Below, piece after piece: positions 13,174 through 58,389 of a stretch of DNA of 64,000 nt (position 1 is the stretch's first letter; every line of letters begins with the position of its first letter). The translations under genes and the position numbers were made by a program. The notes under the pieces are model-generated. The model saw only the letters and a list, made by a program, of their open reading frames with translations. It had not been told where the DNA came from and did no database searches. The DNA is from Candidatus Amesbacteria bacterium RIFCSPLOWO2_01_FULL_48_25 (GTDB taxonomy: Bacteria > Patescibacteriota > Microgenomatia > CAZETR01 > Amesbacteraceae), in the NCBI GenBank assembly GCA_001773695.1, contig MEXN01000001.1:41903-105902 (forward strand), written 5' to 3'.

Positions 13174-13288
13174 CCCGGCCACGACCTATTTTCACGGAGA
13201 GTTGCCCCTCAGCTATTGTCAGCGCTGGCGCGTTTTACGGTCCAGTTCGGAATGGGATGGAGTAGTTCCACGCCGCTCCAGTGACCGG
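13174..13288 (-). rRNA. rrf: 5S rRNA
   Basis: The minus-strand reading CCGGTCACTGGAGCGGCGTGGAACTACTCCATCCCATTCCGAACTGGACCGTAAAACGCGCCAGCG...GTCGTGGCCGGG has helix I end-pairing and the CCGAAC loop-C signature. Confidence 0.8.
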
Positions 13289-13506
13289 AAAATTCGTGCT
13301 TTCTTAAGTTTTCAACCAGGCGTTTATTCCCTGGAAAGTGAAGAGAATGTTTGTAATAGATCACGCAAATCTACTTCAATAAGACCGATTAGTACAGGTT
13401 CGCTAAACGCGTTACCGCGCTTACACGGCCTGCCTCTATTACGGGGTATTCTTCCCCGGGTCTTCTGTCCACCTTGCGGTGAACATGAGCTCCTTATCTT
13501 GGGTAG

Positions 13507-13539
<33 letters not shown>

Positions 13540-13678
13540 CGTAGGCACTTAGCTACCCGGCGATGCCGCAAGACGCGACAACCGGCACACCAGAGGTACC
13601 TCCACCCTGGTCCTCTCGTACTGAGGGCAGACCCCCTCAAGAGCTCCCCGACTCTACTGGATAGAGACCGACATTCAT

Positions 13679-14479
13679 CCCGCATATCACTATACGGATT
13701 CGACCATATCTTCACTTCATAGCTCATTCTGAGCATAGTAGTGTCTGACGTATGGCCTGTGAGGATTCTAGTCACCAAAGCTTCGGAGTATTTTTTCCCT
13801 TGAAAACTTTCGCTTACCCGTATTCATGGAATAGGCGATCTCCAAAACTTTAGCCATCCCCTTTCTATGTAAATGCTGTCTTGATTTTACTAGCTCAACG
13901 ACTCGACAAAATTTATCAAAGTCTTCAGCCTTTTTAGTCAGCAATTTATTTCGAAAAAATGGGATTACTTTATCGACAATGCTTGGCAAATCTCTTACAA
14001 CATAAGCCAAACTTTTATCGGTTTTATCAGTTAGACTATTCTGTTTAATATAGCCGCAGTCTAATTTTCGTTTAAGTTTTTCCAAAACTATCCTCCCAGA
14101 AGGGTTCTGTGAAACTTTGAAAAAATAAACCACTTGCCAATGGGTAATTGTTTCCTGGCTTCTAACTATTCCTACATAGAAACAACCTTCGCCTTCAACA
14201 AAACCCACCAAATAATCATCACTGATCATTCGACTAGTCTTTCCTGCTGATAATCTTGCCTTCGTTCTCACACAAAGTGGTTTTACATTTTTACTAGTAT
14301 ACAAATACTACACTAGTAGCAAAACATTTACAAGGTTTTCCAGCATATAGTCAAATTTTATCCACACTTGGGTTGGTGGAATCATCTAATAACAGTTTCT
14401 CGCATAATTTAAATTAACATTCAAAAACGGTGGATGATAGACAGCTCGAAATTGTCACCTATTAGAATTACTTTAGGTC
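13679..14479 (-). mobile_element. Group I intron in 23S rRNA domain V (insertion after ...GAGACAGT, before TCGGTC...)
   Basis: Exon continuity GTGAGACAGT | TCGGTCTCTATCC is broken by about 800 nt that contain a LAGLIDADG ORF. The 5' exon ends in U and the intron ends in G, as expected for group I introns. Confidence 0.75.
13768..14304 (-). CDS. LAGLIDADG homing endonuclease (intron-encoded)
   Basis: LVGFVEGEGCFYVGIV is a LAGLIDADG motif variant. The ORF lies entirely inside the 23S rRNA intron. Confidence 0.8.
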   Translation of the reverse strand: MYTSKNVKPLCVRTKARLSAGKTSRMISDDYLVGFVEGEGCFYVGIVRSQETITHWQVVYFFKVSQNPSGRIVLEKLKRKLDCGYIKQNSLTDKTDKSLAYVVRDLPSIVDKVIPFFRNKLLTKKAEDFDKFCRVVELVKSRQHLHRKGMAKVLEIAYSMNTGKRKFSREKILRSFGD

Positions 14480-14516
<37 letters not shown>

Positions 14517-15105
14517 CTTTTAACCGGCGAACAGCCGGACCTTTGGGAGGTACTGCCCCCCCTGGATAGGATGAGCCGACATCGAGGTGCCAAACCGCCG
14601 CGTCGATATGGACTCTTGGCGGCGATCAGCCTGTTATCCCTAGGGTAGCTTTTATCCGTTAAGCTCGCCGCCACCCACGTGGCATGCGAGGATCACTACG
14701 GCCTGCTTTCGCACCTGCTCGAGCTGACACTCTCACAGTCAAGCACACTTTTGCCGTTACACGACCCGTTCGATTTCCATCCGAACTTAAGTGTACCTTG
14801 GCACTCCTGCGTTACCTTTTAGCAGGATACCTCCCCAGTAAAACTGCCCCCCAGACCTTGTCCCCTCCGACGTTTCCAGTCGGAATAAGTAAGTCTTGAG
14901 ATTTTAAAACGAGAGGTGTTTCACTTTCTCCCAAAGCCTTGCGGCCAAAGGATACCTCCTACTCTAAACTATCTCAAAATCCAAAACAGGGCCTGAGTAC
15001 AGTAAAGCTCCATAGGGTCTTTTTGTCCTAGTAGAGTTAGGCCGCATCTTCACAGCCATTTCAATTTCGCCGGGTAACAGTTCAAGACAGTTGCTCTGTC
15101 GTTAA

Positions 15106-15141
<36 letters not shown>

Positions 15142-16700
15142 CTTCGCTACCATAGAACAGTTATAGTTACTGCTGCCGTTCACTCGAGCTTCATTTCAAG
15201 TCTTCGCCCTTGCGGGCTAAACCATCCACTTAACTTACGAGCACTGGGCAGGCTTCAGCCTGTATACTGCCTCTTTCGAGTTTGCACAGACCTGTGTTTT
15301 AGTTAAACAGTCGCAGAGCAATCTTTCGCTGCGGTCCGCCAAATGGCGGACAGGACATCTTGCTAACTTACGTCCAGCTTTTTTGCCGAGTTCCTTGAAC
15401 TGCCTTCTCCCGATCGCCTTGGTCTACTCGACCATCCCACCAGTGTCGGTTTGCGGTACGGCAAAGTAAACGTCTCGTCACGAACTTTTTCTCGAAAACA
15501 AAAACATTCCGGATCATCAACTCAATTTCTCAAGTCAACTCTTCATCACCACTCAATTAAACGCCATGCCGGATTTTCCAGGCACAACTGTTTCATGGCT
15601 TAAACGCGCATTCACTGCACACGCCCAGATGTTCTCGTTTTGTCTATCCCTGACTATTAACGACGTCCACTCTGTAGCCGAATATTCACGGCTCGTCCAT
15701 CAGCTACGGCCACTACGCCCTCGCCTTAGGTGCCGACTCACCCTGGGCCAAACAATGTCGCCCAGGAAACCTTGGGATTTCGGCGGTCCGAATTCTCATC
15801 GGACTTACGCTACTCATTCCGGCATTCTCACTTGAAACCGCTCCAAACCGGTTTACACCAGCCCTTCGCAGCAATTTCAACGCTCCCCTACCGATTCGTG
15901 CGCAGCACGAAAGTTACTAAGTATTCCAGTTAACCAGTTGCACAGTTGATTTAAACTGACAAACTGGAAAACTGTCGAACTGAATAACTTTTGTGCTACA
16001 CACAAATCCTGTGTCTTCGGCAAAACGCTTCAGCCTCGGTTCATTTTCCGCGCCAAACTCCAAATTCGACCAGTGAGCTGTTACGCTTTCTTTAAAGGAT
16101 GGCTGCTTCTGAGCCAACCTCCTGGCTGTCTGAGGAATTTGACTACGTTCAACACTAAGCGTTCATTTAGAGGCCTTAGACGACAGTCTGGGTTGTTTCC
16201 CTTTAGATCGGCCCGCTTAGCCGGGTCGTTCTGACTCCCTCGTAAGTTCTTACCAGCATTCGGAGTTTGATTGAATATTACAACTTGCGCTGCAACACCC
16301 ATCCAGTGCTCTACCTCTGATAAGTTTTTAACGAGAGGCTATACCTATATATATTTCGGGGAGAGCCAGCTATCTCCTGGTTCGATTGGCATATTACCCC
16401 TAATCACAAGTCGTCCCACAGGTTTGTAACCCTGACGGGTACGGGCCTCCCTCCGGTTTTCACCGGAGCTCACCCTGCTCATGATTAGCTCACCAGGTTT
16501 CGGGTCTTCCAGCTGCTGCTTTTCGCCCTATTCAGACTCGCTTTCGCTCCGCCTACTCCCGATTTAATCGGGATTAAACTCGCAACAACCGAAAACTCGC
16601 CGGATCATTCTTCAATAGGCACGCGATCATCCGCCAGATGGCGGACTCTCACTGCTTGTTAGCAGACAATTTCAGGTTCTATTTCACTCGGGTTTCGCCC

Positions 16701-16742
<42 letters not shown>

Positions 16743-17356
16743 ATGCCAAAGTATTTAGCCTTGGAGCGTGGTTGCCCCGGATTCCCACAAAGTATGTGCT
16801 TCATGGTACTTGGGAACAAGCTAGGGTGGATTTAGATTTCACCTACGCGGCTATCACGCGCTCTGGCCTGACTTTCCAGACAGTTCGGCTATCCAAAACC
16901 CAATCCCACATTACTTGCCCCGCAACACCACTCCATAGCCCTTACGGGCAACGGGTGGTTTAGGCTTTTCCGATTTCGCTCACCGCTACTCACGGAATCT
17001 CTTTGATTTATTTTCCAGTCCCTACTTAGATGTTTCAGTTCGAGACGTTCCCCCCACGTTCATTTAACTGAACGTGGTCTCCATATAGGAGGGGTTTCCC
17101 CATTCGGAAACCGCCGGATCAGCGCTTCTTGGCAGCTCCCCGACGACTATCGCGGCCCTGTACGTCCTTCTTCGGCTTTGACATCCTAGGCATCCATTGT
17201 CTGCATTACGGAAGTATAAAATGCGGCTCTACTACAAAATTCTCTTCACTTTTCAAAGAGCAAACATTCCTCAGCCGTTGATGGCTGATCTCGGCCTCCC
17301 CACGAAAGGGAAACCGGGATCAACTCTCAAAGCTTGCCCTGAGCACGGTCGAATGG

Positions 17357-17431
17357 GTGGACTCGGAGGGATTCGAACCCTCGACCTCATCATTGCAAAT
17401 GATGCGCTCTAGCCAACTAAGCTACGAGCCC
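17357..17431 (-). tRNA. tRNA-Ala (anticodon UGC)
   Basis: GGGCTCGTAGCTTAGTTGGCTAGAGCGCATCATTTGCAATGATGAGGTCGAGGGTTCGAATCCCTCCGAGTCCA has a G3:U70 pair, a UGC anticodon and a canonical T-loop. It sits immediately upstream of the 23S. Confidence 0.85.
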
Positions 17432-17442
17432 TCCGAATCTAA

Positions 17443-17471
17443 ATTGTCAAAAAAACACCTCCTTTCGGAGG
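17443..17471 (-). terminator. Intrinsic terminator (CCTCCGAAAGGAGG + U-run) upstream of tRNA-Ala
   Basis: Minus-strand hairpin followed by TGTTTTTTTG. It would separate the upstream protein genes from the tRNA-Ala-23S-5S unit. Confidence 0.45.
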
Positions 17472-17605
17472 CCACGATTACCTTGCTTTATAGGTGCTCT
17501 AGGACACGCCCGACACCAAGTTGATTAGATTTAAAAGCAAAGTCCTCATGAATTCAAACCACCCTCGAAAGGTAATCCTGATATTACCTTCCCCTTCCCT
17601 CCCTG

Positions 17606-17908
17606 TCAAGCCCGTCCACTATGGTTATGCATAAGTTTTGGCTGTGAAGCAAGTATCCTAACCAGTTCCCTCCTAGCCTTTTCGGCAACAAGTATGTTCG
17701 CATTGACCAACCTCCTATCAATATTTGCCTCCGAAACCCCTTCGGTAACCCCGGGATCCAACTCATAATAGTCACCGGATTTATCCTTTAATTCTTTCAG
17801 CCTGGCCAGCTTAACTGAATACGAAACCCCACTTAGTACATCGGCATCAAAAGATCCCAGCATCTCCTCACGTCTCATTCTTTCATCAAACTGAGCATCA
17901 GTTTCCAT
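17606..17908 (-). CDS. Hypothetical protein (100 aa), last gene of the HlyD/MacB-like cluster
   Basis: Acidic, non-repetitive composition; no motif recognised. Confidence 0.3.
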   Translation of the reverse strand: METDAQFDERMRREEMLGSFDADVLSGVSYSVKLARLKELKDKSGDYYELDPGVTEGVSEANIDRRLVNANILVAEKARRELVRILASQPKLMHNHSGRA

Positions 17909-17940
17909 GGCTATATTTTAAAATCCCTTCCAGTCAACTC

Positions 17941-19179
17941 TTATTCATACCTCAAGGCCTCAATCGGGTCTAAACGCGCGGCCCGTACCGCCGGCGCCAG
18001 TCCCGATACTATCCCCACCACGGCCGACACCCCAAAAGCCAAGAGTACCGATCCCAAGCTCACCTGAGTCTCGATAAACCTTCCCAAAATTAGAGAAAAC
18101 CCGGCCCCTATGCCTATTCCCATTCCCCCCCCCAGTACCGACAATACTATCGCCTCAATCAAAAATTGCAGCAGTATATCTCTTTTAGTCGCCCCCACCG
18201 CTTTGCGAAGTCCAATCTCCCGCGTCCTCTCCGTCACCGACACCAGCATAATATTGGCAATCCCAATTCCGCCCACAACCAGAGAAATTGCCGCAATCCC
18301 AGACAATGCCCCCGTCACCACCCCCAAAAATGAATTAATCGTCTCCAATAGTTCCTTAGGCTCAAGTATCGTAAAGTCGTCATCCGTCAAATTCTTGCGG
18401 TAAAAATAGTTTTTAATTTTCCGGGCAGCCACCGCCGTCCCCGCAGCATCCACTGTCCTCACCATTACTGCCGCCGGTTTTTTAATCCCCGTTACCCGAG
18501 ATGCCGTAGTCACCGGCATCAGCACAAAAGTATTTTCATCACTATTTCCTCCTATCCCCCCGCCTTTCTCCTTCAAAACTCCGACAATAGTCATCTGCGA
18601 TCCCACCACGTCAATCTCCTTTCCCACCGCATCGCCGACCCCGCCAAATAGTTCCTCATAAACCTTGTGTCCAATTACCACTACCATCTGGCTCCGTTCC
18701 AGCATACTTTTAGTAAAAAACCTGCCCATTTCCACCTCCACGTTGCCGTAATCCAAATACTCCTCGCTTACCCCCGCGATATTTCCGTAAAAGGTTTCAG
18801 AGCGGTATTTTAGTGTCCCCCCCCGGGAAATCATCCCCGACGCCTTCACTATCGGGTCTCCCAAATCGCCTATTTCTTTTATGTCGTTAAAATCAAACTT
18901 CGCCTCTACGTTTCTTGGCGGTCCGCCAGAAAAACTCACTTTCCCAGGCGATATCAAAAGGATATTCGACCCCAAGGACTCAAATTCACGCGTCACAAAT
19001 GCCTGCAGCCCGTTGCCAATAGACACCAAAAGAATGACCGACGCCACCCCGATAATAATCCCCAACGTAGTCAAAACCGACCGCGTTTTATTGGTTCTAA
19101 TAGCAATCCCGGCCGTCCTAAATAACTCGACTCTATCCATACTATCTGATGACGATCCTTTCGCCTTCTTTAAGCCCAA
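17941..19179 (-). CDS. ABC transporter permease, MacB/FtsX family (MacB periplasmic core domain + FtsX)
   Basis: N-terminal TM, a large periplasmic domain, then a C-terminal FtsX-type 3-TM bundle (TERTREIGLRKAVGATKRDIL). No ATPase gene is adjacent. Confidence 0.8.
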   Translation of the reverse strand: MGLKKAKGSSSDSMDRVELFRTAGIAIRTNKTRSVLTTLGIIIGVASVILLVSIGNGLQAFVTREFESLGSNILLISPGKVSFSGGPPRNVEAKFDFNDIKEIGDLGDPIVKASGMISRGGTLKYRSETFYGNIAGVSEEYLDYGNVEVEMGRFFTKSMLERSQMVVVIGHKVYEELFGGVGDAVGKEIDVVGSQMTIVGVLKEKGGGIGGNSDENTFVLMPVTTASRVTGIKKPAAVMVRTVDAAGTAVAARKIKNYFYRKNLTDDDFTILEPKELLETINSFLGVVTGALSGIAAISLVVGGIGIANIMLVSVTERTREIGLRKAVGATKRDILLQFLIEAIVLSVLGGGMGIGIGAGFSLILGRFIETQVSLGSVLLAFGVSAVVGIVSGLAPAVRAARLDPIEALRYE

Positions 19180-20137
19180 CTTTTACTTCTATCAAATCAT
19201 CCCCCTCAATCCCTATCTCCACTTTCCTCTTCCCTCCACCCTCCATCTCTGCCTCACCATCCACCACGGCTTCAATCGGCAACTTCAATACATTTTTCGC
19301 CTCCGAAACGACAAGTGTCGCATCCCCGTTCATCCCCACCCTTAATATCTCAATATCCTCTTCACTTATCTTGACTCTCACCGAAAACACTGTCGCCCCG
19401 GCATCTGAAATATGGGCCACAAACTCAATTATTTTTATTTCCCCTTCAAATTCTTTATCCGGATATGCATCCAGCTCAACCTTCACTTTCTTCCCAATAG
19501 TTACCATGGACAAATCCGCCTCATCTACCTCGGCCTCAAAATACAGCGAGTCGGGATCCACTACATCCACTCCATCGGTAACCCCCGCCGCCTGCCCTAC
19601 CACATTCACAGTCACCCTGGCCACAACCCCGTCAAATGGCGCGATCAAACTGGCATTATTCTTGGCCCGGATCGCGCTCTGCCACGTATCATAAGCTTTA
19701 TCCCTGACGGTCTGTGCCGCCACCCGCTTGTTTTTCAGAACAAATGTCTCGTCATTATCATGGCCTTTTACTTCGTCCTCCACCTGTTTGGCATTAGCAT
19801 CCGCCGCGATATAACTATAATAGGCGGCCGTTTCGGCAGCAGCCAAATCCCGCACGTCCAATCCCATCATAGCCGTCCCCTTTTTCACCTCGTCTCCCTC
19901 GCGGGCCTTCACATACCCCAGCTTACCCGGACTCAAGAATCGTAAATGCGCTTCTTTCTCCGCTTTGATTTTCCCCGATAGTGCCAGAGTCCTAACCACG
20001 TCACCCTTCTCCACGCTCACAATCCTTGTATTCTTGTTGTTGTTGCTTTTACTCCTCATCCACAACCACCACCCCGCCCCAACGACAAGTATTAAAATAG
20101 CAATCGCTATGTTGCGCCGCCTCATAGACTTACCCAT
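19142..20137 (-). CDS. Efflux/secretion periplasmic adaptor (HlyD/MacA family membrane fusion protein)
   Basis: N-terminal TM anchor, coiled-coil segment, lipoyl/beta-barrel segments. It overlaps the permease gene. Confidence 0.75.
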   Translation of the reverse strand: MGKSMRRRNIAIAILILVVGAGWWLWMRSKSNNNKNTRIVSVEKGDVVRTLALSGKIKAEKEAHLRFLSPGKLGYVKAREGDEVKKGTAMMGLDVRDLAAAETAAYYSYIAADANAKQVEDEVKGHDNDETFVLKNKRVAAQTVRDKAYDTWQSAIRAKNNASLIAPFDGVVARVTVNVVGQAAGVTDGVDVVDPDSLYFEAEVDEADLSMVTIGKKVKVELDAYPDKEFEGEIKIIEFVAHISDAGATVFSVRVKISEEDIEILRVGMNGDATLVVSEAKNVLKLPIEAVVDGEAEMEGGGKRKVEIGIEGDDLIEVKVGLKEGERIVIR

Positions 20138-20419
20138 TTTAACTCACCGTGCTAAACTTAAATAAGATTATGAAACCAACCACAGTCGTCTTTAGTCTCA
20201 TAGCCACCATCGCTGTCGTTTTTCTTGTGGCGGCCATTGGTTCCTTCCTCTACGGCATATTCATCCTCCCCAAACTCAACCGCGGCATTTTTTGTATTCA
20301 ATCCCTCTCCCGTTCCTGCTTTCTTGGTTCCACTATCTGTTACAATTTCCCCAATCCCTGCTCCGCCCCACCCCTCTGGTACCCCAGATCCCGCTAGTTA
20401 AGATATAATTCACCTGTTC

Positions 20420-20491
20420 GGGTCGCTGGTTCAGCGGTAGAACGTCGTCCTGATAAGACGAAAACGCCAGGTCCGACTCCTGGGCGACCCA
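20420..20491 (+). tRNA. tRNA-Ile (anticodon GAU)
   Basis: GGGTCGCTGGTTCAGCGGTAGAACGTCGTCCTGATAAGACGAAAACGCCAGGTCCGACTCCTGGGCGACCCA folds as a cloverleaf only on the plus strand. Anticodon loop CTGATAA; T-loop TCCGACT is non-canonical; a TATAAT box lies 10 nt upstream. Confidence 0.7.
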
Positions 20492-20504
20492 CTAAAACTA
20501 TCCA

Positions 20505-20741
20505 TCACTCTACTAGAGTAAATCCAATCATTCGCCCCTCTTTATTCACCACCTCATCAAACTTTCGGCCATTTGGTAATTGCCACCTTGTCTTTTTTTC
20601 CCCATCCTTATCTCTACACCAAACAGCCTCCCACCCCCACCGCTTCCTATCCTCAGCAATTGCAAACTCCTTTTCCAGCCGCCGCCTATTTATCAAGCCC
20701 ATAAGACGAAGATACTCCAAATCGCCTATCTCCTTCATCAA
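20505..20741 (-). CDS. Hypothetical small protein (78 aa)
   Basis: ORF between tRNA-Ile and the 16S; basic/acidic mix; no motif. Confidence 0.3.
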   Translation of the reverse strand: MMKEIGDLEYLRLMGLINRRRLEKEFAIAEDRKRWGWEAVWCRDKDGEKKTRWQLPNGRKFDEVVNKEGRMIGFTLVE

Positions 20742-20992
20742 ATATCTGTTTTTAAGCTCTTCCGTTTCTGTTCTCCAACCCGGAAATCTCCCTCTCGAGT
20801 CCCTCCACCATATCTTTATAAACCATAAATTCCGTATACCGCAGTTCGGAAAGAGAATTCTCGTGCCGCACGCCCCGGAATTTTCTCTTGGCCTCCAAAT
20901 ATTTCGGCTTATATTTCGCCAGCTGCTCCTCCAAATATTTCAGCCTCGTCTGAGTGTCCATACCCCATTTTAACCCTCCGACCAACAGTAAC

Positions 20993-21235
20993 CTACTGCC
21001 TAAAAAGCAACACACCCAAAAGGCGAGCCAACACCGACTCTCTTGGATTTACACGCATCCAATATCCCCTACGAACCCTATCTACTACTCCCCTCATGTG
21101 ACATTGGGTACAACTAAATTCTCTGCCCGCCAGCCCTTCCGCAGCTTTCTTCTTCAATATCTCAGGCAACGGACAATCGCTCTCTTGTTGACAACCCACA
21201 ATTACTAATGGCACTCCTAACCTCATTTCTATCAT
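20993..21235 (-). CDS. Hypothetical small Cys-containing protein (80 aa; C..C...C..C.H zinc-ribbon-like)
   Basis: CQQESDCPLPE...CTQCHMRG. It sits just after the bidirectional terminator that follows the 16S. Confidence 0.3.
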   Translation of the reverse strand: MIEMRLGVPLVIVGCQQESDCPLPEILKKKAAEGLAGREFSCTQCHMRGVVDRVRRGYWMRVNPRESVLARLLGVLLFRQ

Positions 21236-21261
21236 ACTCAGATTATATCAATAACAAGGCC

Positions 21262-21291
21262 AAAAAACCCGCCAAATAGGCGGGCTTTTTT
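21262..21291. terminator. Bidirectional intrinsic terminator AAAAAACCCGCCAAATAGGCGGGCTTTTTT
   Basis: Perfect 6-bp GC stem flanked by an A6 run and a T7 run, located about 180 nt past the 16S 3' end. Confidence 0.75.
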
Positions 21292-21470
21292 GCTTGTACT
21301 CTAAAAAGTGGTAGGAAATATAAGTAGCGGGAAACTGCTTTTGACGTGTGCTGCTTCCCCTACCTGCGGGTCCCGTTATTTTAATGTGGACGGTTTCCAA
21401 TGACCACAGGGTGATTTCCACTACGGCTCTGAAAAAATTAATTTTCTAAGCCTACCGTGATTAACTCCTA

Positions 21471-22965
<1,495 letters not shown>

Positions 22966-37026: not shown

Positions 37027-38112
37027 TTATTTTTTCAGAAAATATTTTGCCGCCTTAGTCGACCCTCTCTTAACTATCACTCCTTTTTGCAGCAGATATT
37101 TAAACTCCCGCAAAATCGTGTCTTCGGATACCATAGACAACATTTTCCTCGCCTCGGCCATTGTAATTTGCCCGTTGCTGTTTAAATACTCGACCAGCTT
37201 CATCTGCCGCGGCGACAGCGCCACCTGCTGCCCCACCCTCTCTTTAATTTTTATGTCGACAGATAACTCCTTCACTTTCAGCTTTATCCGTGTCAATTCA
37301 TCAGCCAGTGCCTTGGTAAAAACAGTCAGCCAAGCCGTCAAATCCCGGTCTTCCAGCCTAGGGGCCAGGTTAGACACCTCCATCAAAGCCCCGAAGTAAT
37401 CATCCGCATGCTGGTCAAAGTATTCCTCCAGGGCAAAAAATCTCCTGATGTCGTACCCTTCCCGATGCAGCATCAGCGTTGCAAACGCCCTAGCTGTCCG
37501 TCCGTTACCCTCCGTAAACGGGTGTACCGCCGCCACCACATAATGAGCCACCCCAGCCCGCAAAATCGGGTGTTCCCGCCCCCCCAGTTCGCTATTTATA
37601 TACCGGAAAAAATCATCCATCAGATACGGCACTTCCATAGCCAGGGGAGGCCGGAAACCCACCTCCCCCGTCACCGAGTTTCTCAAAACCACTTGCACCT
37701 GCCGGTACTTGCCCACCTGCTCAGCCGGCACAATTTTATCGACAACCAGCCTGTGGATCTCCCACAACTCCTCGCGCGTATACGCATTCACCCCACTCTT
37801 TTCCAAATACTCCAACACTTTCCTATAATTAATTACTTCCTGCACGTCCCGTTCTCGGGCAGCCACTCCCTCGGCAGCCGCTTCAGCCGGCGTCTCCACT
37901 TCCCGCTCCAAAATAATCTTCGCCTCTCCCAAGCTTAAATCATTGCCTTCCAAAGCAGTCCCATAATGCACCGCCCGCAGTCTGGCATCATCCCGGAACT
38001 TTGCCTCCCACATAGGCACCAGCGGCGCATTTTCAATTACTTCCCTGGCCGCCTCAATCTGCCCAATGTTCTTCAAAATATCGGTGATAATGATATATTT
38101 AGGTGTATACAT
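37027..38112 (-). CDS. Fic-family protein (AMPylator/Doc family) with C-terminal winged-helix
   Basis: HPFTEGNGRTARAF matches the Fic core motif HPFx[DE]GNGR. The probable start is MYTPKY at 38112; the listed N-terminal extension is translation of the leader element. Confidence 0.8.
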   Translation of the reverse strand: MYTPKYIIITDILKNIGQIEAAREVIENAPLVPMWEAKFRDDARLRAVHYGTALEGNDLSLGEAKIILEREVETPAEAAAEGVAARERDVQEVINYRKVLEYLEKSGVNAYTREELWEIHRLVVDKIVPAEQVGKYRQVQVVLRNSVTGEVGFRPPLAMEVPYLMDDFFRYINSELGGREHPILRAGVAHYVVAAVHPFTEGNGRTARAFATLMLHREGYDIRRFFALEEYFDQHADDYFGALMEVSNLAPRLEDRDLTAWLTVFTKALADELTRIKLKVKELSVDIKIKERVGQQVALSPRQMKLVEYLNSNGQITMAEARKMLSMVSEDTILREFKYLLQKGVIVKRGSTKAAKYFLKK

Positions 38113-38130
38113 TCCTAAAAATTCGGTGCA

Positions 38131-38205
38131 GGCGAGATGCAAAATGCGCCCGCAGCCGGACGCCGGCAAACGCCAGGCAGTCGAGGACGTAATTTTGCGC
38201 TCGCC
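38131..38205 (-). promoter_or_regulatory. Conserved GC-rich leader element copy 1 (structured RNA or operator candidate), about 25 nt upstream of fic
   Basis: It shares the core GCAGCCGGACRCCGGCAAACGMCCAGGCAGTCGAGSACG with 58421..58493. Outer arms GGCGAG/CTCGCC and GCAAAAT/ATTTTGC bracket the core. Confidence 0.45.
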
Positions 38206-50732: not shown

Positions 50733-51360
50733 CCGGAATCACCACCTCCCCCACCATTCCCACCATCAATCCCTCCCAACTATCCAAACTCGCATCAACT
50801 ACCAATTTTTTCCCATCCGGCCTTGGCAAACCCGTCTTCCCGGCTAACTCTTTACCATTGATTTTTACCATCACCTCCCCTGGTTCCATAAACCCGTCCA
50901 GTTCTGTCTCAAATCTCAAAGCGTCCAAATCCAATATTTTAAAGGCGTTCGAGGCTGGACTCACATTCAGTCCGACTCTATTTCCCCCATCGTCCACCAC
51001 CGTCCCATTTACCGGCGATATCAACGTCGCCTGATCCATTTTGGCTTTAGCGATTTCTACTTCTTTGACGCTGGCATTCAATTGCGCCTGCTCAATCTGC
51101 TTAGCATACTTGGTCAGATCATCACCCGGATTAGGATTTCTCTTGGCAAATATCTCAAACTCAGCTCTTTTCCTTTCGTAATCGGCCAGCTGTAAATCCA
51201 GCTCCATCTGTAACATCTTGGTATCCAAAGCCGCCAGCACTTCACCTTTCTTAACCGTATCCCCCCTCTTCTTCTTCACCACCGCCACCTTTCCCGAAAA
51301 CGCATACCGCACCTCAATCTCATCAGCGGTCACCATCCCCAACCTTCCCTTCCCAACCAT
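50698..51360 (-). CDS. HlyD-like periplasmic adaptor fragment/short paralogue
   Basis: Lipoyl-like and coiled-coil segments similar to membrane-fusion proteins; no N-terminal TM. Confidence 0.5.
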   Translation of the reverse strand: MVGKGRLGMVTADEIEVRYAFSGKVAVVKKKRGDTVKKGEVLAALDTKMLQMELDLQLADYERKRAEFEIFAKRNPNPGDDLTKYAKQIEQAQLNASVKEVEIAKAKMDQATLISPVNGTVVDDGGNRVGLNVSPASNAFKILDLDALRFETELDGFMEPGEVMVKINGKELAGKTGLPRPDGKKLVVDASLDSWEGLMVGMVGEVVIPDEKNNAQEIDG

Positions 51361-51440
51361 CTACTAAATATTACCACTCCCGCGAGGACTTCATGAAATC
51401 AATTTTTGGAATCCGCAAAGCCAGCTTCGAATGGTATAAT

Positions 51441-51446
51441 AAGAAT
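51441..51446 (+). promoter_or_regulatory. -10 box TATAAT about 10 nt upstream of the GC-rich ORF-free region
   Basis: cttcgaatggTATAATaagaattg. Confidence 0.35.
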
Positions 51447-51454
51447 TGTTCTTT

Positions 51455-51745
51455 CAAAAAGACGTGCGGGGTAGTGTAGAGTTGCACGGAAGGCTAGTAG
51501 TATGGGCCCCGCCGACAGTAATGTCGGTGTGCAAACTTGGCTATATCGGTGGACACCCCGGTGTAATACCGGGACAATACCGAGGCAATCCCGAAAGGGC
51601 GAGTCCGTAGAGACTAAACGCCAAGTCCCCCCGAAGCTTCATGCGAAGGGGGAATGATATAGTCCGACACTCAAAGTAATTTGAGATTACAGATCAGCAT
51701 AATCTTCCAGGCCGGGCGCGACTCCCGGCCCCGCAACAAGTAAAA
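51455..51745 (+). ncRNA. Unidentified structured RNA candidate (about 290 nt, GC-rich, ORF-free)
   Basis: No ORF in any frame across about 350 nt, and GC markedly above the flanks. Many local hairpins with GNRA-type loops: GCGGGG...CCCCGC, CCGACA-GTAA-TGTCGG, CCGGT-GTAAT-ACCGG, CCC-GAAA-GGG, CTCAAA-GTAAT-TTGAG, GCCGGG...CCCGGC. Confidence 0.35.
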
Positions 51746-51806
51746 TTTAGCTTCAAAAACCGAGAGATGGGAGTGATAGGATCACGCCTGGTGTATAATT
51801 TAACAG

Positions 51807-52178
51807 GTGAAGCTTAAGAAAATTCTGGATAAATTACTCGAAATATACTTTTTGGGAATGGGAGTGTTCTTTGTGTTCGGGTCTGTGGTATCTTTCTTTG
51901 TATTTCTTTCCCAAAAGGTCGAAGTAGGCCTTATAACACCCGTTAAAACCCTAGTATTTGGACTCCTTTTTCTTTATTCAGGTGTTAGTTTAATGAGAAA
52001 GAAAGCCCACGGATACCAATATTGTCTTCTGGCATTGGCGATAGTTTTCCTTGTATCAACCCTGCATAGATTGTTTTTTGTAACAAGTTTCAGATTAGAG
52101 CGGGTGGATTTTAATAACTTACTTTTGTTTGGAATCCCGTTCCTGGTCACCCTCCTCTCGAATAAATTAGAAATATGA
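51807..52178 (+). CDS. Hypothetical membrane protein (123 aa, 4 TM), GTG start
   Basis: Hydrophobic helices; GTGTATAAT lies about 10 nt upstream. Confidence 0.4.
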   Translation: MKLKKILDKLLEIYFLGMGVFFVFGSVVSFFVFLSQKVEVGLITPVKTLVFGLLFLYSGVSLMRKKAHGYQYCLLALAIVFLVSTLHRLFFVTSFRLERVDFNNLLLFGIPFLVTLLSNKLEI

Positions 52179-52195
52179 TCGTATCGGTTTTGATA

Positions 52196-52225
52196 AAAAC
52201 CAGGTTCTGATTTCATCCAACCCCC
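52196..52225. repeat. Direct repeat copy 1 (AAAACCAGGTTCTGATTTCATCCAACCCCC)
   Basis: About 30 nt with 27/30 identity to 53236..53267; it lies immediately 3' of the fic gene. Confidence 0.7.
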
Positions 52226-52228
52226 AAA

Positions 52229-53188
52229 TTAGGTTGACAATTTTCGCTGCCTTTGCCGCCCTTTAACATATCTTTCTATAGCTTCTTGAGTGGCAACCCA
52301 AATGCGCTTTTCCTTGTGTGCTTCGATTTTTCCGAAACGGGCCAAAAGATTGAGATATTTCTTTGAGTAAGGAGTTAAATTTACCAACGAAGACAGTGGT
52401 TGATATTTTTTCCCGGCATCTACTTCGGGAGACAGGGTTTTTAGGTAAATATTCAACGATCGTTCTATCGCTTGGGCCACAAAGCGAATCAACGGAGCAA
52501 GCTTCCCTTTGTCCGCATCTGCCAAAACCCGATAATATTTTTGCCTGTCGTTTTTTAGAATAACCACCAGAGGATAGCCTCTGTTTAGTAAGACAAGGTT
52601 CATAACCAAACGGGCAGTTCGTCCGTTACCATCCACAAAGGGGTGGATGTAAACCAGTTTGTGATGCAGAATAGCCGCGAATTCAACAGGATGGAGCTTT
52701 TGAATATTCTCCCCGGCCCAGGATATCAAATCGCTCATCTCAAACGAAACTTCACTCGAATCCGGTGGTAAATGGTCGGAACCGGTAATCATGACATTGG
52801 TTTGTCTATAACTTCCGGCTTGGTCCGCTTCCGTTTCCCGAACTACCAGCTTGTGCAGGTTTCTGATTAAAACTTCCGAAATTGTTTGTTGGGAGTTTTT
52901 TTCAACTAACTCATAGAGGTAATCCAACGCGTCGTAATGATCACGTGCTTCCAGATGGTCTTTAAGCGGTTTACCCTTGATAGTCAGGCCGTCTTTAATA
53001 ACCCAAGCCGTTTCTTTGAGAGTTAAGGAATTGCCCTCAATCGCGTTGGAATTGTAAGTCATTTCTATGGCAAACTGTTCCCGCAGCTTAGCCACAGCAG
53101 ATGTAGACAACGGTCTTTGAGGGTTAAGTTTGGCCAGTTTTTCATCAATTCTAGCCTGAATTCGAGAGTCTAATATGGTATAGACCAT
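52229..53188 (-). CDS. Fic-family protein
   Basis: HPFVDGNGRTARLV core motif; C-terminal helical domain. Confidence 0.8.
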   Translation of the reverse strand: MVYTILDSRIQARIDEKLAKLNPQRPLSTSAVAKLREQFAIEMTYNSNAIEGNSLTLKETAWVIKDGLTIKGKPLKDHLEARDHYDALDYLYELVEKNSQQTISEVLIRNLHKLVVRETEADQAGSYRQTNVMITGSDHLPPDSSEVSFEMSDLISWAGENIQKLHPVEFAAILHHKLVYIHPFVDGNGRTARLVMNLVLLNRGYPLVVILKNDRQKYYRVLADADKGKLAPLIRFVAQAIERSLNIYLKTLSPEVDAGKKYQPLSSLVNLTPYSKKYLNLLARFGKIEAHKEKRIWVATQEAIERYVKGRQRQRKLST

Positions 53189-53235
53189 ATTTCTTCTTAT
53201 ACCATGTTAAGAACTGGATTGCAAGCAGGTAGTGA

Positions 53236-53267
53236 GAGAAAATAGGTTCTGATTTCATCCAATCCCC
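53236..53267. repeat. Direct repeat copy 2 (AAAATAGGTTCTGATTTCATCCAATCCCCG)
   Basis: Matches 52196..52225; it lies immediately 5' of the fic gene. Confidence 0.7.
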
Positions 53268-53276
53268 GCAACCAAG

Positions 53277-53304
53277 TCAAAACCCGCTTCACGGCGGGTT
53301 TTTT
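53277..53304. terminator. Bidirectional intrinsic terminator AAAACCCGCTTCACGGCGGGTTTTTT
   Basis: GC stem CCCGC/GCGGG flanked by an A-run and a T-run. Confidence 0.6.
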
Positions 53305-53322
53305 AGTCCCTCATCCTAAGGT

Positions 53323-53328
53323 ATAATC
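53323..53328 (+). promoter_or_regulatory. -10 box TATAAT, 11 nt upstream of the tRNA 5' fragment
   Basis: cctaaggTATAATcaaggctaaatcGGCTACG. Confidence 0.4.
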
Positions 53329-53339
53329 AAGGCTAAATC

Positions 53340-53358
53340 GGCTACGTAGCTCAATGGT
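53340..53358 (+). repeat. Duplicated tRNA-Met 5' segment (acceptor and D-arm, 19 nt: GGCTACGTAGCTCAATGGT)
   Basis: 17/19 identical to positions 1-19 of the intact tRNA at 54095; tRNA-like sequence does not continue beyond it. Confidence 0.7.
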
Positions 53359-53426
53359 GTATTTTAAAAACGTTGGTTGTAAGAAATGCGAACCGATGAT
53401 ACAATAAACCATAGATATCGTTTTCT

Positions 53427-54104
53427 ATGGCAAAATCGTACCTTAAAAACAGGGCCATCGAGCTTCGTAAATCCGGCCTGAGTGTCAAGAATATCGCTGA
53501 ATCCCTAGGAGTCTCCAAAAGCACCGCAAGTTTGTGGGTCAGAGACATAGTCCTTTCTCTTGAACAAGAGGAGTCTCTAAAACAAAGATCCTTAAAAGGA
53601 GCGGAAAAGGGTCGCACAATCGGATCGCTAGTTCAAAAACAAAGACGGCTCAAACTGCTAGAAACAGAGAAAAAAATCGGGATAAAAGAGGTGGGGCAAC
53701 TCACCAAAAATGAGCTTAAAGTCGGCGGCTTAGCTCTGTACTGGGCCGAAGGATCCAAAAAGAACCGCAGAGTCGAACTTTGCAACTCGGATCCCTTCGT
53801 TATCAAGTTCTTCATCAACTGGCTCATTAATACTTTCGACATACCCATAAAGGAACTCTCTTGCTATGTCGGTATTAATGAGGCTCACAGGGCTAGAGAA
53901 GTCAAAGTGAAAAAATACTGGTCGCTCTTAACGAAAATTCCCCTCACCAGCTTCACTAAAACTAGCTTCAAAAAGTATCCCCTCAAAAAAGAATATCCAA
54001 ACTTTGACGAACACTATGGCACACTTTCAGTTCGTGTGCGGAAACCGGCACGAATTTACTATAAAATCCTAGGTGGAATCCACGGACTGTCCATGGCTAC
54101 GTAG
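53427..54104 (+). CDS. HTH + LAGLIDADG-like putative homing endonuclease (225 aa)
   Basis: N-terminal HTH (LRKSGLSVKNIAESLGVSKSTASLWV) and a LAGLIDADG-like motif GGLALYWAEGSK. The stop codon TAG lies within nucleotides 8-10 of the downstream tRNA (GGCTACGTAG). Confidence 0.45.
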   Translation: MAKSYLKNRAIELRKSGLSVKNIAESLGVSKSTASLWVRDIVLSLEQEESLKQRSLKGAEKGRTIGSLVQKQRRLKLLETEKKIGIKEVGQLTKNELKVGGLALYWAEGSKKNRRVELCNSDPFVIKFFINWLINTFDIPIKELSCYVGINEAHRAREVKVKKYWSLLTKIPLTSFTKTSFKKYPLKKEYPNFDEHYGTLSVRVRKPARIYYKILGGIHGLSMAT

Positions 54105-54167
54105 CTCAGCGGTTAGAGCGCACGCTTCATAAGCGTGATGTCGCTGGTCCGATCCCAGCCGTAGCCA
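54095..54167 (+). tRNA. tRNA-Met (anticodon CAU; elongator type or tRNA-Ile-lysidine, not initiator-like)
   Basis: GGCTACGTAGCTCAGCGGTTAGAGCGCACGCTTCATAAGCGTGATGTCGCTGGTCCGATCCCAGCCGTAGCCA is a complete cloverleaf. G1-C72 and the absence of three G-C pairs in the anticodon stem argue against an initiator. T-loop TCCGATC. Confidence 0.85.
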
Positions 54168-54431
54168 CATGTCCAAAGATATTCTGTTCCGGATCCGCCA
54201 ACCCCAAAAACCAGGGCCAACAACTTTTCTCAATGGTATCCCATACTCACGAATAAGACACGCATACAATCTAAGCAATCAAGCCCCTGTTGAAGAATCA
54301 CCCTCCTCAATAACCCTTTTCGAGAGAGTTGTTACTAGTAAAACCAGTTGGATAAGGCCATGTCGCGTAATTACGCCACGCGAATGGCTGGTATCTCAAT
54401 TAATCAAACTCTTTCCCAACGAAAAAGTGGT

Positions 54432-54803: not shown

Positions 54804-55742
54804 TTGCAATCTCCACCCCAACCAGGTACAATTCATCAATTAACCTGTCCCATAGTCAATTTACAAATGGCCTCACTTCCCGACCCAATTAGCTTTGATA
54901 CTGCCCTGGAGAAATTTACCAGCCACCTTAAAAGTCAACACCGCTCTTCCTCCACCTCAATAGCCTATATCGGCGACCTGGCCCAACTCCGCTCCTACCT
55001 GGAAACTCACCGCATTACCCAAGCTACTACCGTCCAAACCCAGCACTTAGAGGAGTTTGTCACCCAGCTGGGAGAAAAAAACTACACTCCCAAGTCTATA
55101 AGCCGCAAGATCAACTCACTCAAGACTTTTTTCAAATTCCTCCATCAAACCGGCCTCCACAACTCCAACCCCGCCTCTCCCCTCACCCACCCCAAATACA
55201 CCACTCCCCCACCCCGCATATTAACCCAAGAAGAATACTCCAAGCTGCGCGACGCCTGCCGACTGGATATTAGGGTTTGCGCCATCGTCGAGATCCTTCT
55301 CCAAACCGGCATGCGCATTTCCGAGCTGGCCAACCTCAGGCTGGAAGACATCAAGAAAAACGAGCTTTTCATCCGCCCTCTAGAAAACAATCCGGAGCGT
55401 TCCATCCCCTTAAACCGCCAGGCTACCATCGCCATTCAGAACTACCTGAGCCTGCGTCCCACCACTGCCGATACCCATCTTTTCGTCACCAAAACCGGCC
55501 GGCCGCTACTGATTAGAAATATCAGAACCAGTATCGATCGCTATTTCAAAAAGGCCGGCCTGAGCAACATCAAAGTCAACGATCTTCGGCACACCTTTAT
55601 AGCCCACCAGCTAAGTAACGGCGTCCTGCCCGAAGTCATCCACAAACACGTCGGTCACCGCCGGATCAGTTCCACCGAAAAATACCTCGAATTTATAAAG
55701 ATCACCGCCACTACCACCTCCTCCAAACTCCTGGAATTGTAA
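54804..55742 (+). CDS. Tyrosine site-specific recombinase (XerC/XerD/integrase family); likely start MASLPD near 54870
   Basis: N-terminal SAM-like core-binding domain; catalytic R...HxxR...Y (LRHTFIAHQL, HVGHRRISSTEKYLEF). Confidence 0.8.
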   Translation: MQSPPQPGTIHQLTCPIVNLQMASLPDPISFDTALEKFTSHLKSQHRSSSTSIAYIGDLAQLRSYLETHRITQATTVQTQHLEEFVTQLGEKNYTPKSISRKINSLKTFFKFLHQTGLHNSNPASPLTHPKYTTPPPRILTQEEYSKLRDACRLDIRVCAIVEILLQTGMRISELANLRLEDIKKNELFIRPLENNPERSIPLNRQATIAIQNYLSLRPTTADTHLFVTKTGRPLLIRNIRTSIDRYFKKAGLSNIKVNDLRHTFIAHQLSNGVLPEVIHKHVGHRRISSTEKYLEFIKITATTTSSKLLEL

Positions 55743-56043: not shown

Positions 56044-58389
56044 TTACAGCTTCGCTCTCGCCGCAATCTCACTCTCGACCAGGCGCACATCCCGACCATA
56101 TTTCAGTCTCGACAGCTGCTTTATAGCTTCGGCCAGCTTCTCATTGCGCATCCCCCGCTCAGCCGTTATATCCTTAGTCACGTCCATAGTAAACGGCGTC
56201 ACCGGCTCGTTTCTCACAATAGTTTTGATAAACACGTTAAACCTCTCAATATTCAGTAAGTCCGCCTCGTTAAAAGTAGGCGTATACTCATGCTGCAAAT
56301 AGTTAGCGTCCCCCACTCCCACCCGGAAGGAAACCAAAGTTCCCACATTCCCAAACACCGCGTTTTTCACCTCGTCCTCCATCTGAGAAGTAAACTGGTT
56401 GGCTACGATCAAATTCAGCTTGTATTTCCTAGCTTCCGACAAAATAGTAGCAAAATCCGGCGTGGCAAAATTCTGAAACTCGTCCACGTACAAGTAAAAC
56501 GGCCGTCTGTCTTTTTCTAAAATATCAGCTCTACTCATAGCCGCAGACAAAAGTCTGGGTACCAATACCAACCCCAGAAAATTACTATTTTCCTCTCCCA
56601 ATTTTCCCTTGGACAAATTGACAATCAAAATTTTCCCCTCGTCCATCACCGCCCGGAAATCAAATGCCGATTGAGGCTGGCCGATAATATTTCTTATCGT
56701 CCGGTTAGTCACGAACCGGCCAAACTTGGACACAATATAATCCAGCACTTCGGATTTATGAAAGTCGGAGGTTTGGGCAATCTGGTCGGTCCAATACCGC
56801 CTCACAATTGGGTCTTTCACCCGCGGCAACATCTCCTGGACAAACTCAGGTCGCTGCAGCGCCTGCACCACCTCGATAAACGTTCCCCCCGGCACTGCGT
56901 CCATGACGGTCAACATTGCATTCCTGATCGCGTGTTCAAACCTCGGCCCAATAATCCCGGTTTTATGTGGATCGTACAGCTTGTACATCATCCCAATCAC
57001 GGCATTAGTAGCCATATGCCGCTCCTGGTCGGACCTGGCCTCGATCAAGTTCAACCCCATCGGCCGCTCCGTATCCGACGGATCAAAAAAGACCACATCC
57101 TCCGCCCGCTCGGGCGGGATATAACCAAGCAAGTCCTCTGCTAGATCATGCGGGTCGATGACACAAACTCCCTTCCCCGCCCGGATATCCTGGAGAATCA
57201 TCGTCTTCAAAAATTCCGTCTTTCCCGTCCCCGTCCGCCCGATAATATATATGTGCCGTTCCCGGTCCATATCTGAGGTATAAACCGGCCGTGTCACTCC
57301 TCTAAAAACTGACTTGCCTAAATACAGCCCTTCCGTAGGTATCCCCTGCGGCGCCGGCGCCCGCTTGGCATTCAGCCAAAAAATATGCGGCGTCTCCACG
57401 GATTTATTCGGGAAGTGGTAAATAGTAGCCAGCTCCTCGGAATTTAATACCGTCCAATTTCCCCACCAGACCATCGGCTGATACCTGTAGATAAAGTCCA
57501 CCATAAAGCTGGTTTTCAGTCGGATTTTCTTGCCCTTAAATCCATTCAAATCCCCATTAAACTGCTCAAACGCCGCCTTAATATTGGCCAAGTGCGCACG
57601 GGCCGAGTCACGGTTAACCGAAGACACCACAATCCGTATTGTCGTGGCAAATCCGTTTTTAGACACTTTGTTATCCACTGCCTCCAGAACTTTAGGGTCC
57701 ACTTTATAACTGGCCTTCTCCGGATCGGACTCGCTCTTTTTAGTCTTTCCAATCCACGTCCTACCTTTTTTCTTCCATCCCGCCTCGGCCGGTGCCAACA
57801 CTATCTGCACGTGCGCTCCCTCCCCATCTCCCATTTTAGCCAGCGCCGAGGTCACAGCCGCCATGGGATCCGTCGTCAAATTTTTAAATATCTGGATAGG
57901 ATAATACGACGCGTTTCGTAGTATCAGCCAAGCAAACTCCACACGGCCGTCAACTGTAAATATATTCGGCTCCTCCACCACCTTAATTTCAGCCCCCGAA
58001 TACCCGCCATGGATTTGCTTCTCTACCAAGTCCCGCAATTTCTCAGGCAGCATGATATAAAACCGGATGTCTTCCTTTCGGGCCAATATTTCAAAAGAGA
58101 TATGTGGCTGCACCTGCAAAAATGAAAACCACCCAAACGGCCCCAATCCCCCCCTCTTGATCGAATACAGGCTGCTAATTATCTGTTCCATGGCATCAAT
58201 TTTTATTTCGTTATCCCGCGGCACCGCCACCTGCAGGCACACCATCTCCAGACTCTTATCTTCCCTGTCCCGGTGCCGGTACCACACCACCAGCAAATAC
58301 CCCACCAATGTCATCAGCACCACAAACACACCCAAAATAACGACCAGTAATACTATCGGCCCAATCAAACTCGCCACATACGGATTCAT
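56044..58389 (-). CDS. VirB4/TraG-like (AAA_10/DUF87-type) membrane-anchored P-loop ATPase, type IV secretion/conjugation-like
   Basis: N-terminal TM; Walker A IIGRTGTGKTEF followed by VIDPHDLAEDL (the hDP+GE-like signature of VirB4/TraC/TraG ATPases); Walker B LYVDEFQNF. Confidence 0.65.
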   Translation of the reverse strand: MNPYVASLIGPIVLLVVILGVFVVLMTLVGYLLVVWYRHRDREDKSLEMVCLQVAVPRDNEIKIDAMEQIISSLYSIKRGGLGPFGWFSFLQVQPHISFEILARKEDIRFYIMLPEKLRDLVEKQIHGGYSGAEIKVVEEPNIFTVDGRVEFAWLILRNASYYPIQIFKNLTTDPMAAVTSALAKMGDGEGAHVQIVLAPAEAGWKKKGRTWIGKTKKSESDPEKASYKVDPKVLEAVDNKVSKNGFATTIRIVVSSVNRDSARAHLANIKAAFEQFNGDLNGFKGKKIRLKTSFMVDFIYRYQPMVWWGNWTVLNSEELATIYHFPNKSVETPHIFWLNAKRAPAPQGIPTEGLYLGKSVFRGVTRPVYTSDMDRERHIYIIGRTGTGKTEFLKTMILQDIRAGKGVCVIDPHDLAEDLLGYIPPERAEDVVFFDPSDTERPMGLNLIEARSDQERHMATNAVIGMMYKLYDPHKTGIIGPRFEHAIRNAMLTVMDAVPGGTFIEVVQALQRPEFVQEMLPRVKDPIVRRYWTDQIAQTSDFHKSEVLDYIVSKFGRFVTNRTIRNIIGQPQSAFDFRAVMDEGKILIVNLSKGKLGEENSNFLGLVLVPRLLSAAMSRADILEKDRRPFYLYVDEFQNFATPDFATILSEARKYKLNLIVANQFTSQMEDEVKNAVFGNVGTLVSFRVGVGDANYLQHEYTPTFNEADLLNIERFNVFIKTIVRNEPVTPFTMDVTKDITAERGMRNEKLAEAIKQLSRLKYGRDVRLVESEIAARAKL

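Follow-up and report, generated by a model that had tools for sequence, protein, structure and literature searches.

Single-gene units separated by a conserved repeat behind a tRNA(CAU) gene of Candidatus Amesbacteria: probable att-type junctions of an integrative array

The stretch of DNA analysed here, hereafter the window, comprises 64,000 nucleotides of contig MEXN01000001.1 (positions 41,903 to 105,902 of the forward strand; assembly GCA_001773695.1) from Candidatus Amesbacteria bacterium RIFCSPLOWO2_01_FULL_48_25, and contains a gene for a Fic-domain protein that lies between two direct repeats, DR1 and DR2. These repeats are probably att-type junctions, left where elements integrated site-specifically at the end (3') of a gene for tRNA(CAU), located 0.5 kb upstream of DR1, and the locus would then be an array of two units resembling cis-mobilizable elements (CIMEs). 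The order in the window is tRNA(CAU), a trailer, a gene encoding 123 amino acids, DR1, Fic on the opposite strand, DR2 and a flank named B', followed by backbone with the tRNA-Met promoter, tRNA-Met, DivIC and a Xer-like recombinase gene (Table 1). A previous reading of the letters alone (the sequence-only reading) had proposed site-specific recombination or att sites on either side of Fic. Comparative evidence supports its core idea but not DR1 as the attL of Fic: DR1 is better placed as the right-hand junction of a preceding unit, with Fic as the second unit of the array. Both the tRNA gene as integration target and the presence of two units had been overlooked.

The direct repeats that bracket Fic were recovered by a repeat search of the window as a pair of 40 nucleotides (52186-52225 and 53228-53267), 83% identical and spaced 1042 bp apart, much as had been reported. 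Within them lies a core of 24 nucleotides, AGGTTCTGATTTCATCCAAYCCCC (52202-52225 and 53244-53267), with one mismatch between the copies; it occurs exactly twice in the window with up to 3 mismatches allowed, against 0 occurrences expected from 100 shuffles. The second copy of the 30-mer described previously is present but starts at 53239, not 53236, and the likeness of DR2 to other copies of the repeat reaches rightwards to 53272 (CCCCGCAAC). Only 3 nucleotides separate DR1 from the Fic stop codon, and about 50 separate the Fic ATG from DR2. The second Fic gene of the window indeed has no copy of the repeat; its location, given as 37027-38112, is corrected to 37027-38169 on the minus strand.

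Further copies of the repeat, a search for which had been suggested, were found in related loci (on contigs designated here by L numbers), so that the repeat is clearly not confined to the window. In total, 13 copies from seven related loci were aligned to give the consensus GAGAGAAAnTAGGTTCTGATTTCATCCAATCCCCGCAAC, in which the core A.GTTC.GATTTC.T is invariant, even though the window and its syntenic relative L040 share no more than about 70% identity in their backbone DNA. L040 and L039, both obtained from a metagenome scan, match the window at this level across FtsH, SNase, DivIC and tRNA-Met. Fic homologues 80-85% identical are encoded on L010, L011 and L012. The motif, which reads (GTT)GCGGGGAyTGGATGAAATCAGAACCT in the orientation of Fic, lies on both sides of the gene in L011 and L012, while L010 retains the repeat at the stop-codon side only, together with a relic upstream that has degenerated (4 mismatches); in L011, a third copy is found past an ORF (open reading frame) of 88 amino acids. 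Two copies in L040 enclose a gene unrelated to anything in the window (geneB, 171 amino acids, within a 179-amino-acid ORF at 1338-1877). Six further lineages were gathered by anchoring on the Xer gene (L057, L058, L059/L060, L061, L065 and L066). Two copies in L058 enclose a gene of 83 amino acids, and L061 possesses three copies of a variant 73% identical to the repeat, two of which bracket Fic (34 nucleotides, 82%, spacing 1087); the repeat is absent from L057, L059/L060, L065 and L066.

Synteny and gene content vary between the relatives with breakpoints at the repeats (window, L011, L012, L040 and L058). L012 and L058 share 80.5% identity over 1328 nucleotides; this homology ends within the repeat, on the far side of which L012 carries Fic and L058 the 83-amino-acid gene, and the homologies between the window and L011 and between the window and L012 are likewise bounded by repeats. 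On all contigs of sufficient length, the array is located downstream of the orthologous tRNA(CAU) and in the orientation of this tRNA, and Fic is the tRNA-distal unit in each of the five arrays that bear it.

The full-length repeat consists of two parts: an arm of about 25-30 nucleotides (P: GAGAGAAAAT-AGGTTCTGATTTCATCC), which would be derived from the element and has no tRNA counterpart, and an identity segment (O: ..TCCCCGCAAC), which copies the tRNA from the last part of the T-stem through the acceptor 3' strand to the discriminator. The right end of full-length repeats, CCCCGCAAC, corresponds to the acceptor 3' strand and discriminator of tRNA(CAU), with an exact 9-mer and 12 of 16 positions overall, and the arrangement is alike in L040, L058 and L061. 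The left 25-30 nucleotides are about 36% identical to the tRNA body by our own count, as expected for attP arms. The sequences that follow the repeats extend this relationship. Positions 53258-53303 of the window (DR2 plus terminator) align with the tRNA(CAU) 3' end and terminator of L059 (8793-8742; 78.8% over 52 nucleotides, E = 8e-5), a lineage that is itself without repeats; B' is shown, as judged from this alignment, to be displaced native downstream sequence of tRNA(CAU). In L061 the copy DR_A is followed by a 43-nucleotide exact copy of the tRNA 3' end and terminator, and in L058 a duplicate of the tRNA trailer of the same genome comes after the copy DRx. The 19-mer AAAATTTAGCTTCAAAAAC and more (L011, 7208-7190) follows the repeat and not the tRNA in L011, whereas in the window it follows the tRNA itself; the repeat and trailer of L011 may represent a P-O-P' junction of the kind that should lie between units in tandem.

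The arrangement conforms to the pattern of P-O-B', B-O-P' and P-O-P' junctions in which successive integrations at the tRNA 3' end would result. Unit 1 would comprise the trailer with its promoter (P'), the 123-amino-acid gene and DR1, and unit 2 would comprise, on the opposite strand, Fic together with a promoter of its own, and then DR2, while the terminator now following DR2 would originally have stood directly behind the tRNA. At DR1, the O segment and the P' that followed it would have been lost by deletion, leaving DR1 fused to the Fic stop codon. Erosion at this junction is graded among the relatives, from L011, where it is intact and followed by trailer, to L012, the window and L010, where it is progressively shorter, indicating the decay of an internal junction. 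If newcomers enter at the tRNA, as in the usual model, the tRNA-distal position of Fic makes it the oldest unit. As the units contain no recombinase, they are to be regarded as non-autonomous, CIME-like cassettes. The strict conservation of a 17-nucleotide core over such divergent backbones speaks for selection that still acts on the repeat, which would be compatible with continuing mobility in trans and also with some other binding function. An empty or recombined site would be expected to read ...GATAAAAACCAGGTTCTGATTTCATCCAATCCCCGCAACCAAGTC (left part of DR1, right part of DR2), and the junction of a Fic circle ...GAGAGAAAATAGGTTCTGATTTCATCCAACCCCCAAATTAGG (left part of DR2, right part of DR1). 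Tandem accretion of small integrative units devoid of recombinase is the most economical reading of the locus.

Several observations weigh against integration at the tRNA 3' end as the origin of the array. Four of eight related lineages (L057, L059, L065 and L066) have a variable gene set at the locus and no repeats at all, so that turnover at this hotspot is independent of the repeats. Nine of nine contigs from the population, representing several samples, are 100% identical over 51301-54200 without any contrast between occupied and empty sites, and thus give no indication that the units move at present. The seven array loci yielded no cognate integrase, and no autonomous P-O-P' element was found in viral contigs or in phage and plasmid collections. 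The trailer stands directly after the tRNA in both the window and L040, where it is conserved, and could be fixed chromosomal sequence and not a P' arm. The O match alone is weak, as 12 of 16 matches to the tRNA end recur about 10 other times in this C-rich window, and the argument therefore rests on the extended flank homologies. Finally, the empty-site pattern has 0 matches in JGI metagenome contigs, a weak negative given that this collection also missed the parent JGI contig when queried with the repeat; neither the unoccupied site nor the circle junction, both suggested previously as checks, was found by this weak search.

The tyrosine recombinase that had been reported at 54804-55742 was confirmed by Pfam and is the only one in the window, its start being placed at 54867 by public gene calls. 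The link drawn between this enzyme and the repeats is not supported. The Xer-like gene lies beside DivIC in 8 of 8 relatives, four of them repeat-free; its presence does not track the repeats, and it is a candidate by position only. Homologues 60-87% identical occur across Amesbacteria, always beside DivIC, and the best matches of the protein are to the XerD, XerC and XerA models, all below cut-off. Among the cassette genes of six loci, no match to a recombinase was obtained with Pfam, NCBIfam or PHROGs. A phage or plasmid carrier was sought, and there was no hit to the Fic protein in IMG/VR or to the P-O-P' junction in phage and plasmid collections. The anatomy of the locus, the conserved repeat, the breakpoints of homology and the displaced tRNA terminator are thus shown directly, whereas the making of the junctions by a recombinase, the identity of this enzyme and any present movement of the units are inferred. 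In the boldest version of the proposal, the tRNA gene would serve as an integron-like capture platform, behind the 3' end of which single-gene cassettes (P'-gene-P-O, with leaderless-type promoters) would be inserted, excised and exchanged by a host recombinase acting in trans, possibly the Xer-like enzyme, with the 17-nucleotide core as its putative binding site. In all relatives with a contig that spans both genes, the Xer-like gene and the tRNA gene are 1-6 kb apart. We hold this version to be doubtful.

The repeat may instead be a conserved intergenic motif, protein-binding or regulatory, that is native to the hotspot, with genes turning over by homologous recombination or by illegitimate insertion and deletion, the motif and the tRNA serving as anchors and no dedicated site-specific recombinase being involved. 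An invariant core on backbones of about 70% identity implies selection on the motif itself; in addition, no recombinase was found, the locus is hypervariable also in relatives that lack the motif, and the L061 variant has diverged roughly in step with its host. The orientation of the motif, however, is fixed relative to the tRNA and not to the flanked genes or promoters, RNAalifold predicts 0 pairs of conserved structure from the 13 copies, and a native motif leaves unexplained both the copy of the tRNA acceptor strand at its distal end and the duplicates of the tRNA's own downstream sequence that follow the copies. This explanation is accordingly judged unlikely. A considerably less probable view takes the repeats for dif-like Xer sites and regards the Fic unit as an integrative mobile element exploiting Xer (IMEX), integrated by the neighbouring recombinase. 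The Xer-like gene is 1.6 kb from DR2, and the length (28-40 bp) and direct orientation of the repeats are like those of dif/IMEX junctions; a weak dyad, GAGAAAAT-N8-ATTTCATC (6 of 8 positions, read from the alignment of copies), is also present in window-type repeats. This dyad is not kept in the L061-type copies, the identity segment is the tRNA 3' end, the Xer-like gene is there irrespective of the repeats, and the GC skew keeps the same sign over all 64 kb (-0.16 to -0.44), so that the window is not a terminus.

Still less credence can be given to an integron-like platform in which the repeats would be attC-type sites and the cassettes captured at an attI beside the tRNA. As in integron arrays, single-gene units are separated by a family of conserved repeats and their content is exchangeable between relatives, and a tyrosine recombinase is nearby. 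Unlike attC sites, the repeat folds into no hairpin (the repeat search found no internal inverted-repeat partner in the window) and it ends in a tRNA fragment; there is no IntI-type integrase, the integron-integrase model TIGR02249 scoring 67.8 bits against a cut-off of 265; and the cassettes, which occur in both orientations, carry promoters of their own. Membership among the integrons is thus largely refuted. Local tandem duplication, or target-site duplication by a transposon, is suggested by the two direct copies flanking one gene but can be regarded as refuted, in agreement with the sequence-only reading as far as transposons are concerned: in other genomes the repeat is found around different genes, and the unit possesses neither transposase nor terminal inverted repeats. 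At 40 nucleotides, the repeat is also much longer than the target duplications known for transposons. Two other readings of the repeat were tried and rejected. One was a tRNA-like RNA (T-arm, D-arm or tmRNA end), but no canonical arm fits by eye and Rfam gives no match at the repeat. The other was a small ORF beginning in the repeat (ATGAAATCAGAACCT, MKSEP), but the copies do not preserve the reading frame.

Table 1. Features of the tRNA(CAU) array and the neighbouring recombinase gene in the window
Feature	Position	Strand	Description
tRNA(CAU) exon 1	51465..51495	+	Positions 1-33; proposed integration target (attB side); aligned to the intron-less L040 tRNA
Group I intron	51496..51697	+	202 nt, in the anticodon loop between U33 and C34; Rfam RF00028, 62 bits
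tRNA(CAU) exon 2	51698..51736	+	Ends ...CTCCCGG-CCCCGCA-A, the identity segment O common to the repeats
Trailer, proposed P' arm of unit 1	51737..51806	+	GTAAAATTTAGCTTCAAAAAC...GGATCACGCC, then TGGTGTATAAT about 7 nt before the GTG start
123-aa ORF, unit 1 cargo	51807..52178	+	Hydrophobic; no family match
DR1	52186..52225	+	P arm and truncated O (GGTTTTGATAAAAACC-AGGTTCTGATTTCATCC-AACCCCC); proposed right junction of unit 1, joined straight to the Fic 3' end
Fic-domain protein, unit 2 cargo	52229..53188	-	319 aa; Pfam PF02661 Fic, E = 9e-23, 81.3 bits
Fic promoter region inside the unit	53189..53227	-	-10 TATAAG 53201-53196, -35 TTGCAA 53224-53219; promoter-like, read from sequence
DR2	53228..53272	+	Full P arm and O (GGTAGTGAGAGAAAAT-AGGTTCTGATTTCATCC-AATCCCCGCAAC); proposed distal attR-like junction of the array
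B' flank	53273..53306	+	CAAGTC and terminator hairpin: stem CCCGC 53283-53287 / GCGGG 53294-53298, then T run
Xer-like tyrosine recombinase	54867..55742	+	291 aa; Pfam Phage_integrase and SAM-like N-domain; backbone gene

The tRNA(CAU) gene of the window was missed by ARAGORN because it is split by the group I intron. The raw Rfam match for the intron extends over approximately 51428-51686, and its exact borders were set by the intron-less orthologues: by BLAST, window 51447-51495 and 51698-51802 align with L040 733-885, where ARAGORN and Rfam tRNA (48.3 bits) both call an intron-less tRNA-Met(CAT) at 751-821, and the same junction is found in L057, L058 and L059. The intron, which is not part of the cassette system, is absent from the orthologues in L040, L057, L058, L059, L061, L065 and L066 and present in L010. 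The tRNA itself has a U1-A72 pair and an unusual T-loop (CGCGACU / UGCGAUU), in which the customary T54-Psi55 is missing. The tRNA(CAU) of L066 is followed after 5 nucleotides by the start of a GIY-YIG gene (198-521). The trailer of the window carries a TATAAT that reads as a leaderless-type promoter, and is 81% identical to the L040 tRNA trailer though the downstream genes are unrelated, L040 having other genes at the position of the 123-amino-acid gene; the hydrophobicity of the product of this gene suggests a membrane protein.

The Fic protein carries the catalytic motif HPFVDGNGRTAR, which conforms to HxFx(D/E)GNGRxxR, and an inhibitory-type motif, SNAIEGN. Its homologues number thousands in Patescibacteria. 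The TTGCAA-17 nt-TATAAG box is kept in L010, L011, L012 and L063; a scan for consensus promoters and terminators, uninformative for this region, does not list it. An inverted repeat of 10-13 nucleotides (ATATGGTATA...TATACCATAT; window 53176-53212), found also in L011 (6184-6216), L061 and L063, is conserved in this family of Fic genes, where it encloses the start codon together with the -10 box, and may be an operator or a hairpin that sequesters the start codon. In L063 (7111-9873), a Fic gene 69% identical lies within a znuABC-type transporter operon without flanking repeats.

Exact look-ups of the Fic and 123-amino-acid proteins returned only the clonal population, with no variation. In species-representative genomes, a 22-mer of the repeat has 0 matches and an 18-mer has 26, essentially all by chance and in unrelated phyla. 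Only the match in L020 (813-836) looks genuine; this is a lone core, AATAGGTTCTGATTTCATCCACAATCCCGC, intergenic after an HU gene in another Patescibacteria metagenome-assembled genome with no tRNA within 8 kb, and may be a scar or a chance match. Matches to the 18-mer in IMG/VR lie inside phage genes only and were rejected as chance. In some lineages, the segment formed by tRNA(CAU) and the array (window 51382-53306 against L040 733-1907) is inverted relative to the SNase...tRNA-Met/DivIC/Xer backbone, the window, L057, L058 and L012 forming one orientation group and L040, L059, L061 and L065 the other. At the border of the segment inverted relative to L040 is a possible degenerate relic of the repeat in inverted orientation (51382..51409, minus strand; GCGAGGACTTCATGAAATCAATTTTTGG), a low-confidence call about 68% identical to the opposite-strand repeat and recovered as an inverted-repeat pair of 20 nucleotides at 80%.

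Other features of the neighbourhood are as follows. An ORF of 225 amino acids with an HTH_23 domain (53427-54104) belongs to DNA (53359-54094) that has been inserted near the 5' end of tRNA-Met (region 53320-54168). The native promoter and a 19-nucleotide duplicate of tRNA positions 1-19 remain at 53320-53358, and the stop codon of the ORF overlaps the rebuilt tRNA; in L040 and L012 the tRNA-Met gene is uninterrupted. A paralogue 43% identical in L010 adjoins a 3' fragment of tRNA(CAU), and the family is confined to Microgenomates. The protein has a confident AlphaFold model with no significant match in PDB, and the ORF looks like a selfish gene that invades tRNA genes. The rRNA genes, on the minus strand (window 13173-22965), are about 4 kb apart, with 16S at 21472-22965 and 23S at 14406-17220; between them are two long ORFs (17941-19179 and 19142-20137) and a tRNA-Ile on the opposite strand. 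A TraG/VirD4-like ATPase of 781 amino acids (DUF8128; 56044-58389) is conserved in all relatives, and ParE/Phd and PIN/RHH toxin-antitoxin pairs are located at 59-62 kb. The GC skew is very strong and uniformly negative over positions 1-64000, being weakest at 50-56 kb, the region of the hotspot.

Several known systems resemble the proposed array. CIMEs of the Streptococcus ICESt1 family are bounded by attL and attR, have lost or never had integration and transfer genes, and follow one another in a stack behind the gene that they target, at its 3' end (PMC5704250). The units described here are similarly bounded by probable att-type sites, have no integration or transfer genes inside and are stacked at a tRNA 3' end; unlike CIMEs, they are single genes of 0.4-1.1 kb in a host of the candidate phyla radiation (CPR), no related integrative element (conjugative or mobilizable) bearing an integrase is known, and their mobilisation is only putative. 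The ssrA islands of Dehalococcoides stand in tandem behind a tRNA-like gene whose 3' end recurs as a direct repeat at their boundaries; next to this repeat is a conserved motif that cannot be aligned with the gene, and 15 islands are without integration module (PMC3146451). Those islands are kilobases long and many have a serine-recombinase integration module, whereas the present array has tRNA(CAU) as its proposed target, consists of single-gene units and shows no recombinase. Tycheposons of Prochlorococcus have att sites in tRNA genes including tRNA-Met(cat), and partial tRNA copies alone separate successive integrations; newer integrations push older ones outwards, degenerate remnants build variable islands, and inversions are associated with them (bioRxiv 10.1101/2020.12.28.424599). 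They encode their own tyrosine recombinase and replication genes, in contrast to the present locus, where there are only remnant-sized units with a long conserved arm not derived from the tRNA. The array thus belongs to a known kind, tandem islands anchored on tRNA or tmRNA genes; what is new is the single-gene scale in a CPR host. The apparent lack of an integrase-bearing relative is a further difference.

The genomes of CPR/Patescibacteria are tiny, and the routes by which they gain and lose accessory genes are poorly known. This locus provides a concrete and recurrent route, a tRNA(CAU) hotspot at which single genes (a Fic-type AMPylase and small ORFans) are stacked and swapped at a conserved junction of about 40 nucleotides. 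If the cassettes are mere scars, this is a tidy but ordinary case of tandem accretion at a tRNA gene. If they are still mobile and driven in trans, the locus would be a miniature tRNA-based analogue of the integron in a lineage without cultured genetics, and the repeat would be a convenient tag by which to find accessory genes in metagenomes of Microgenomates.

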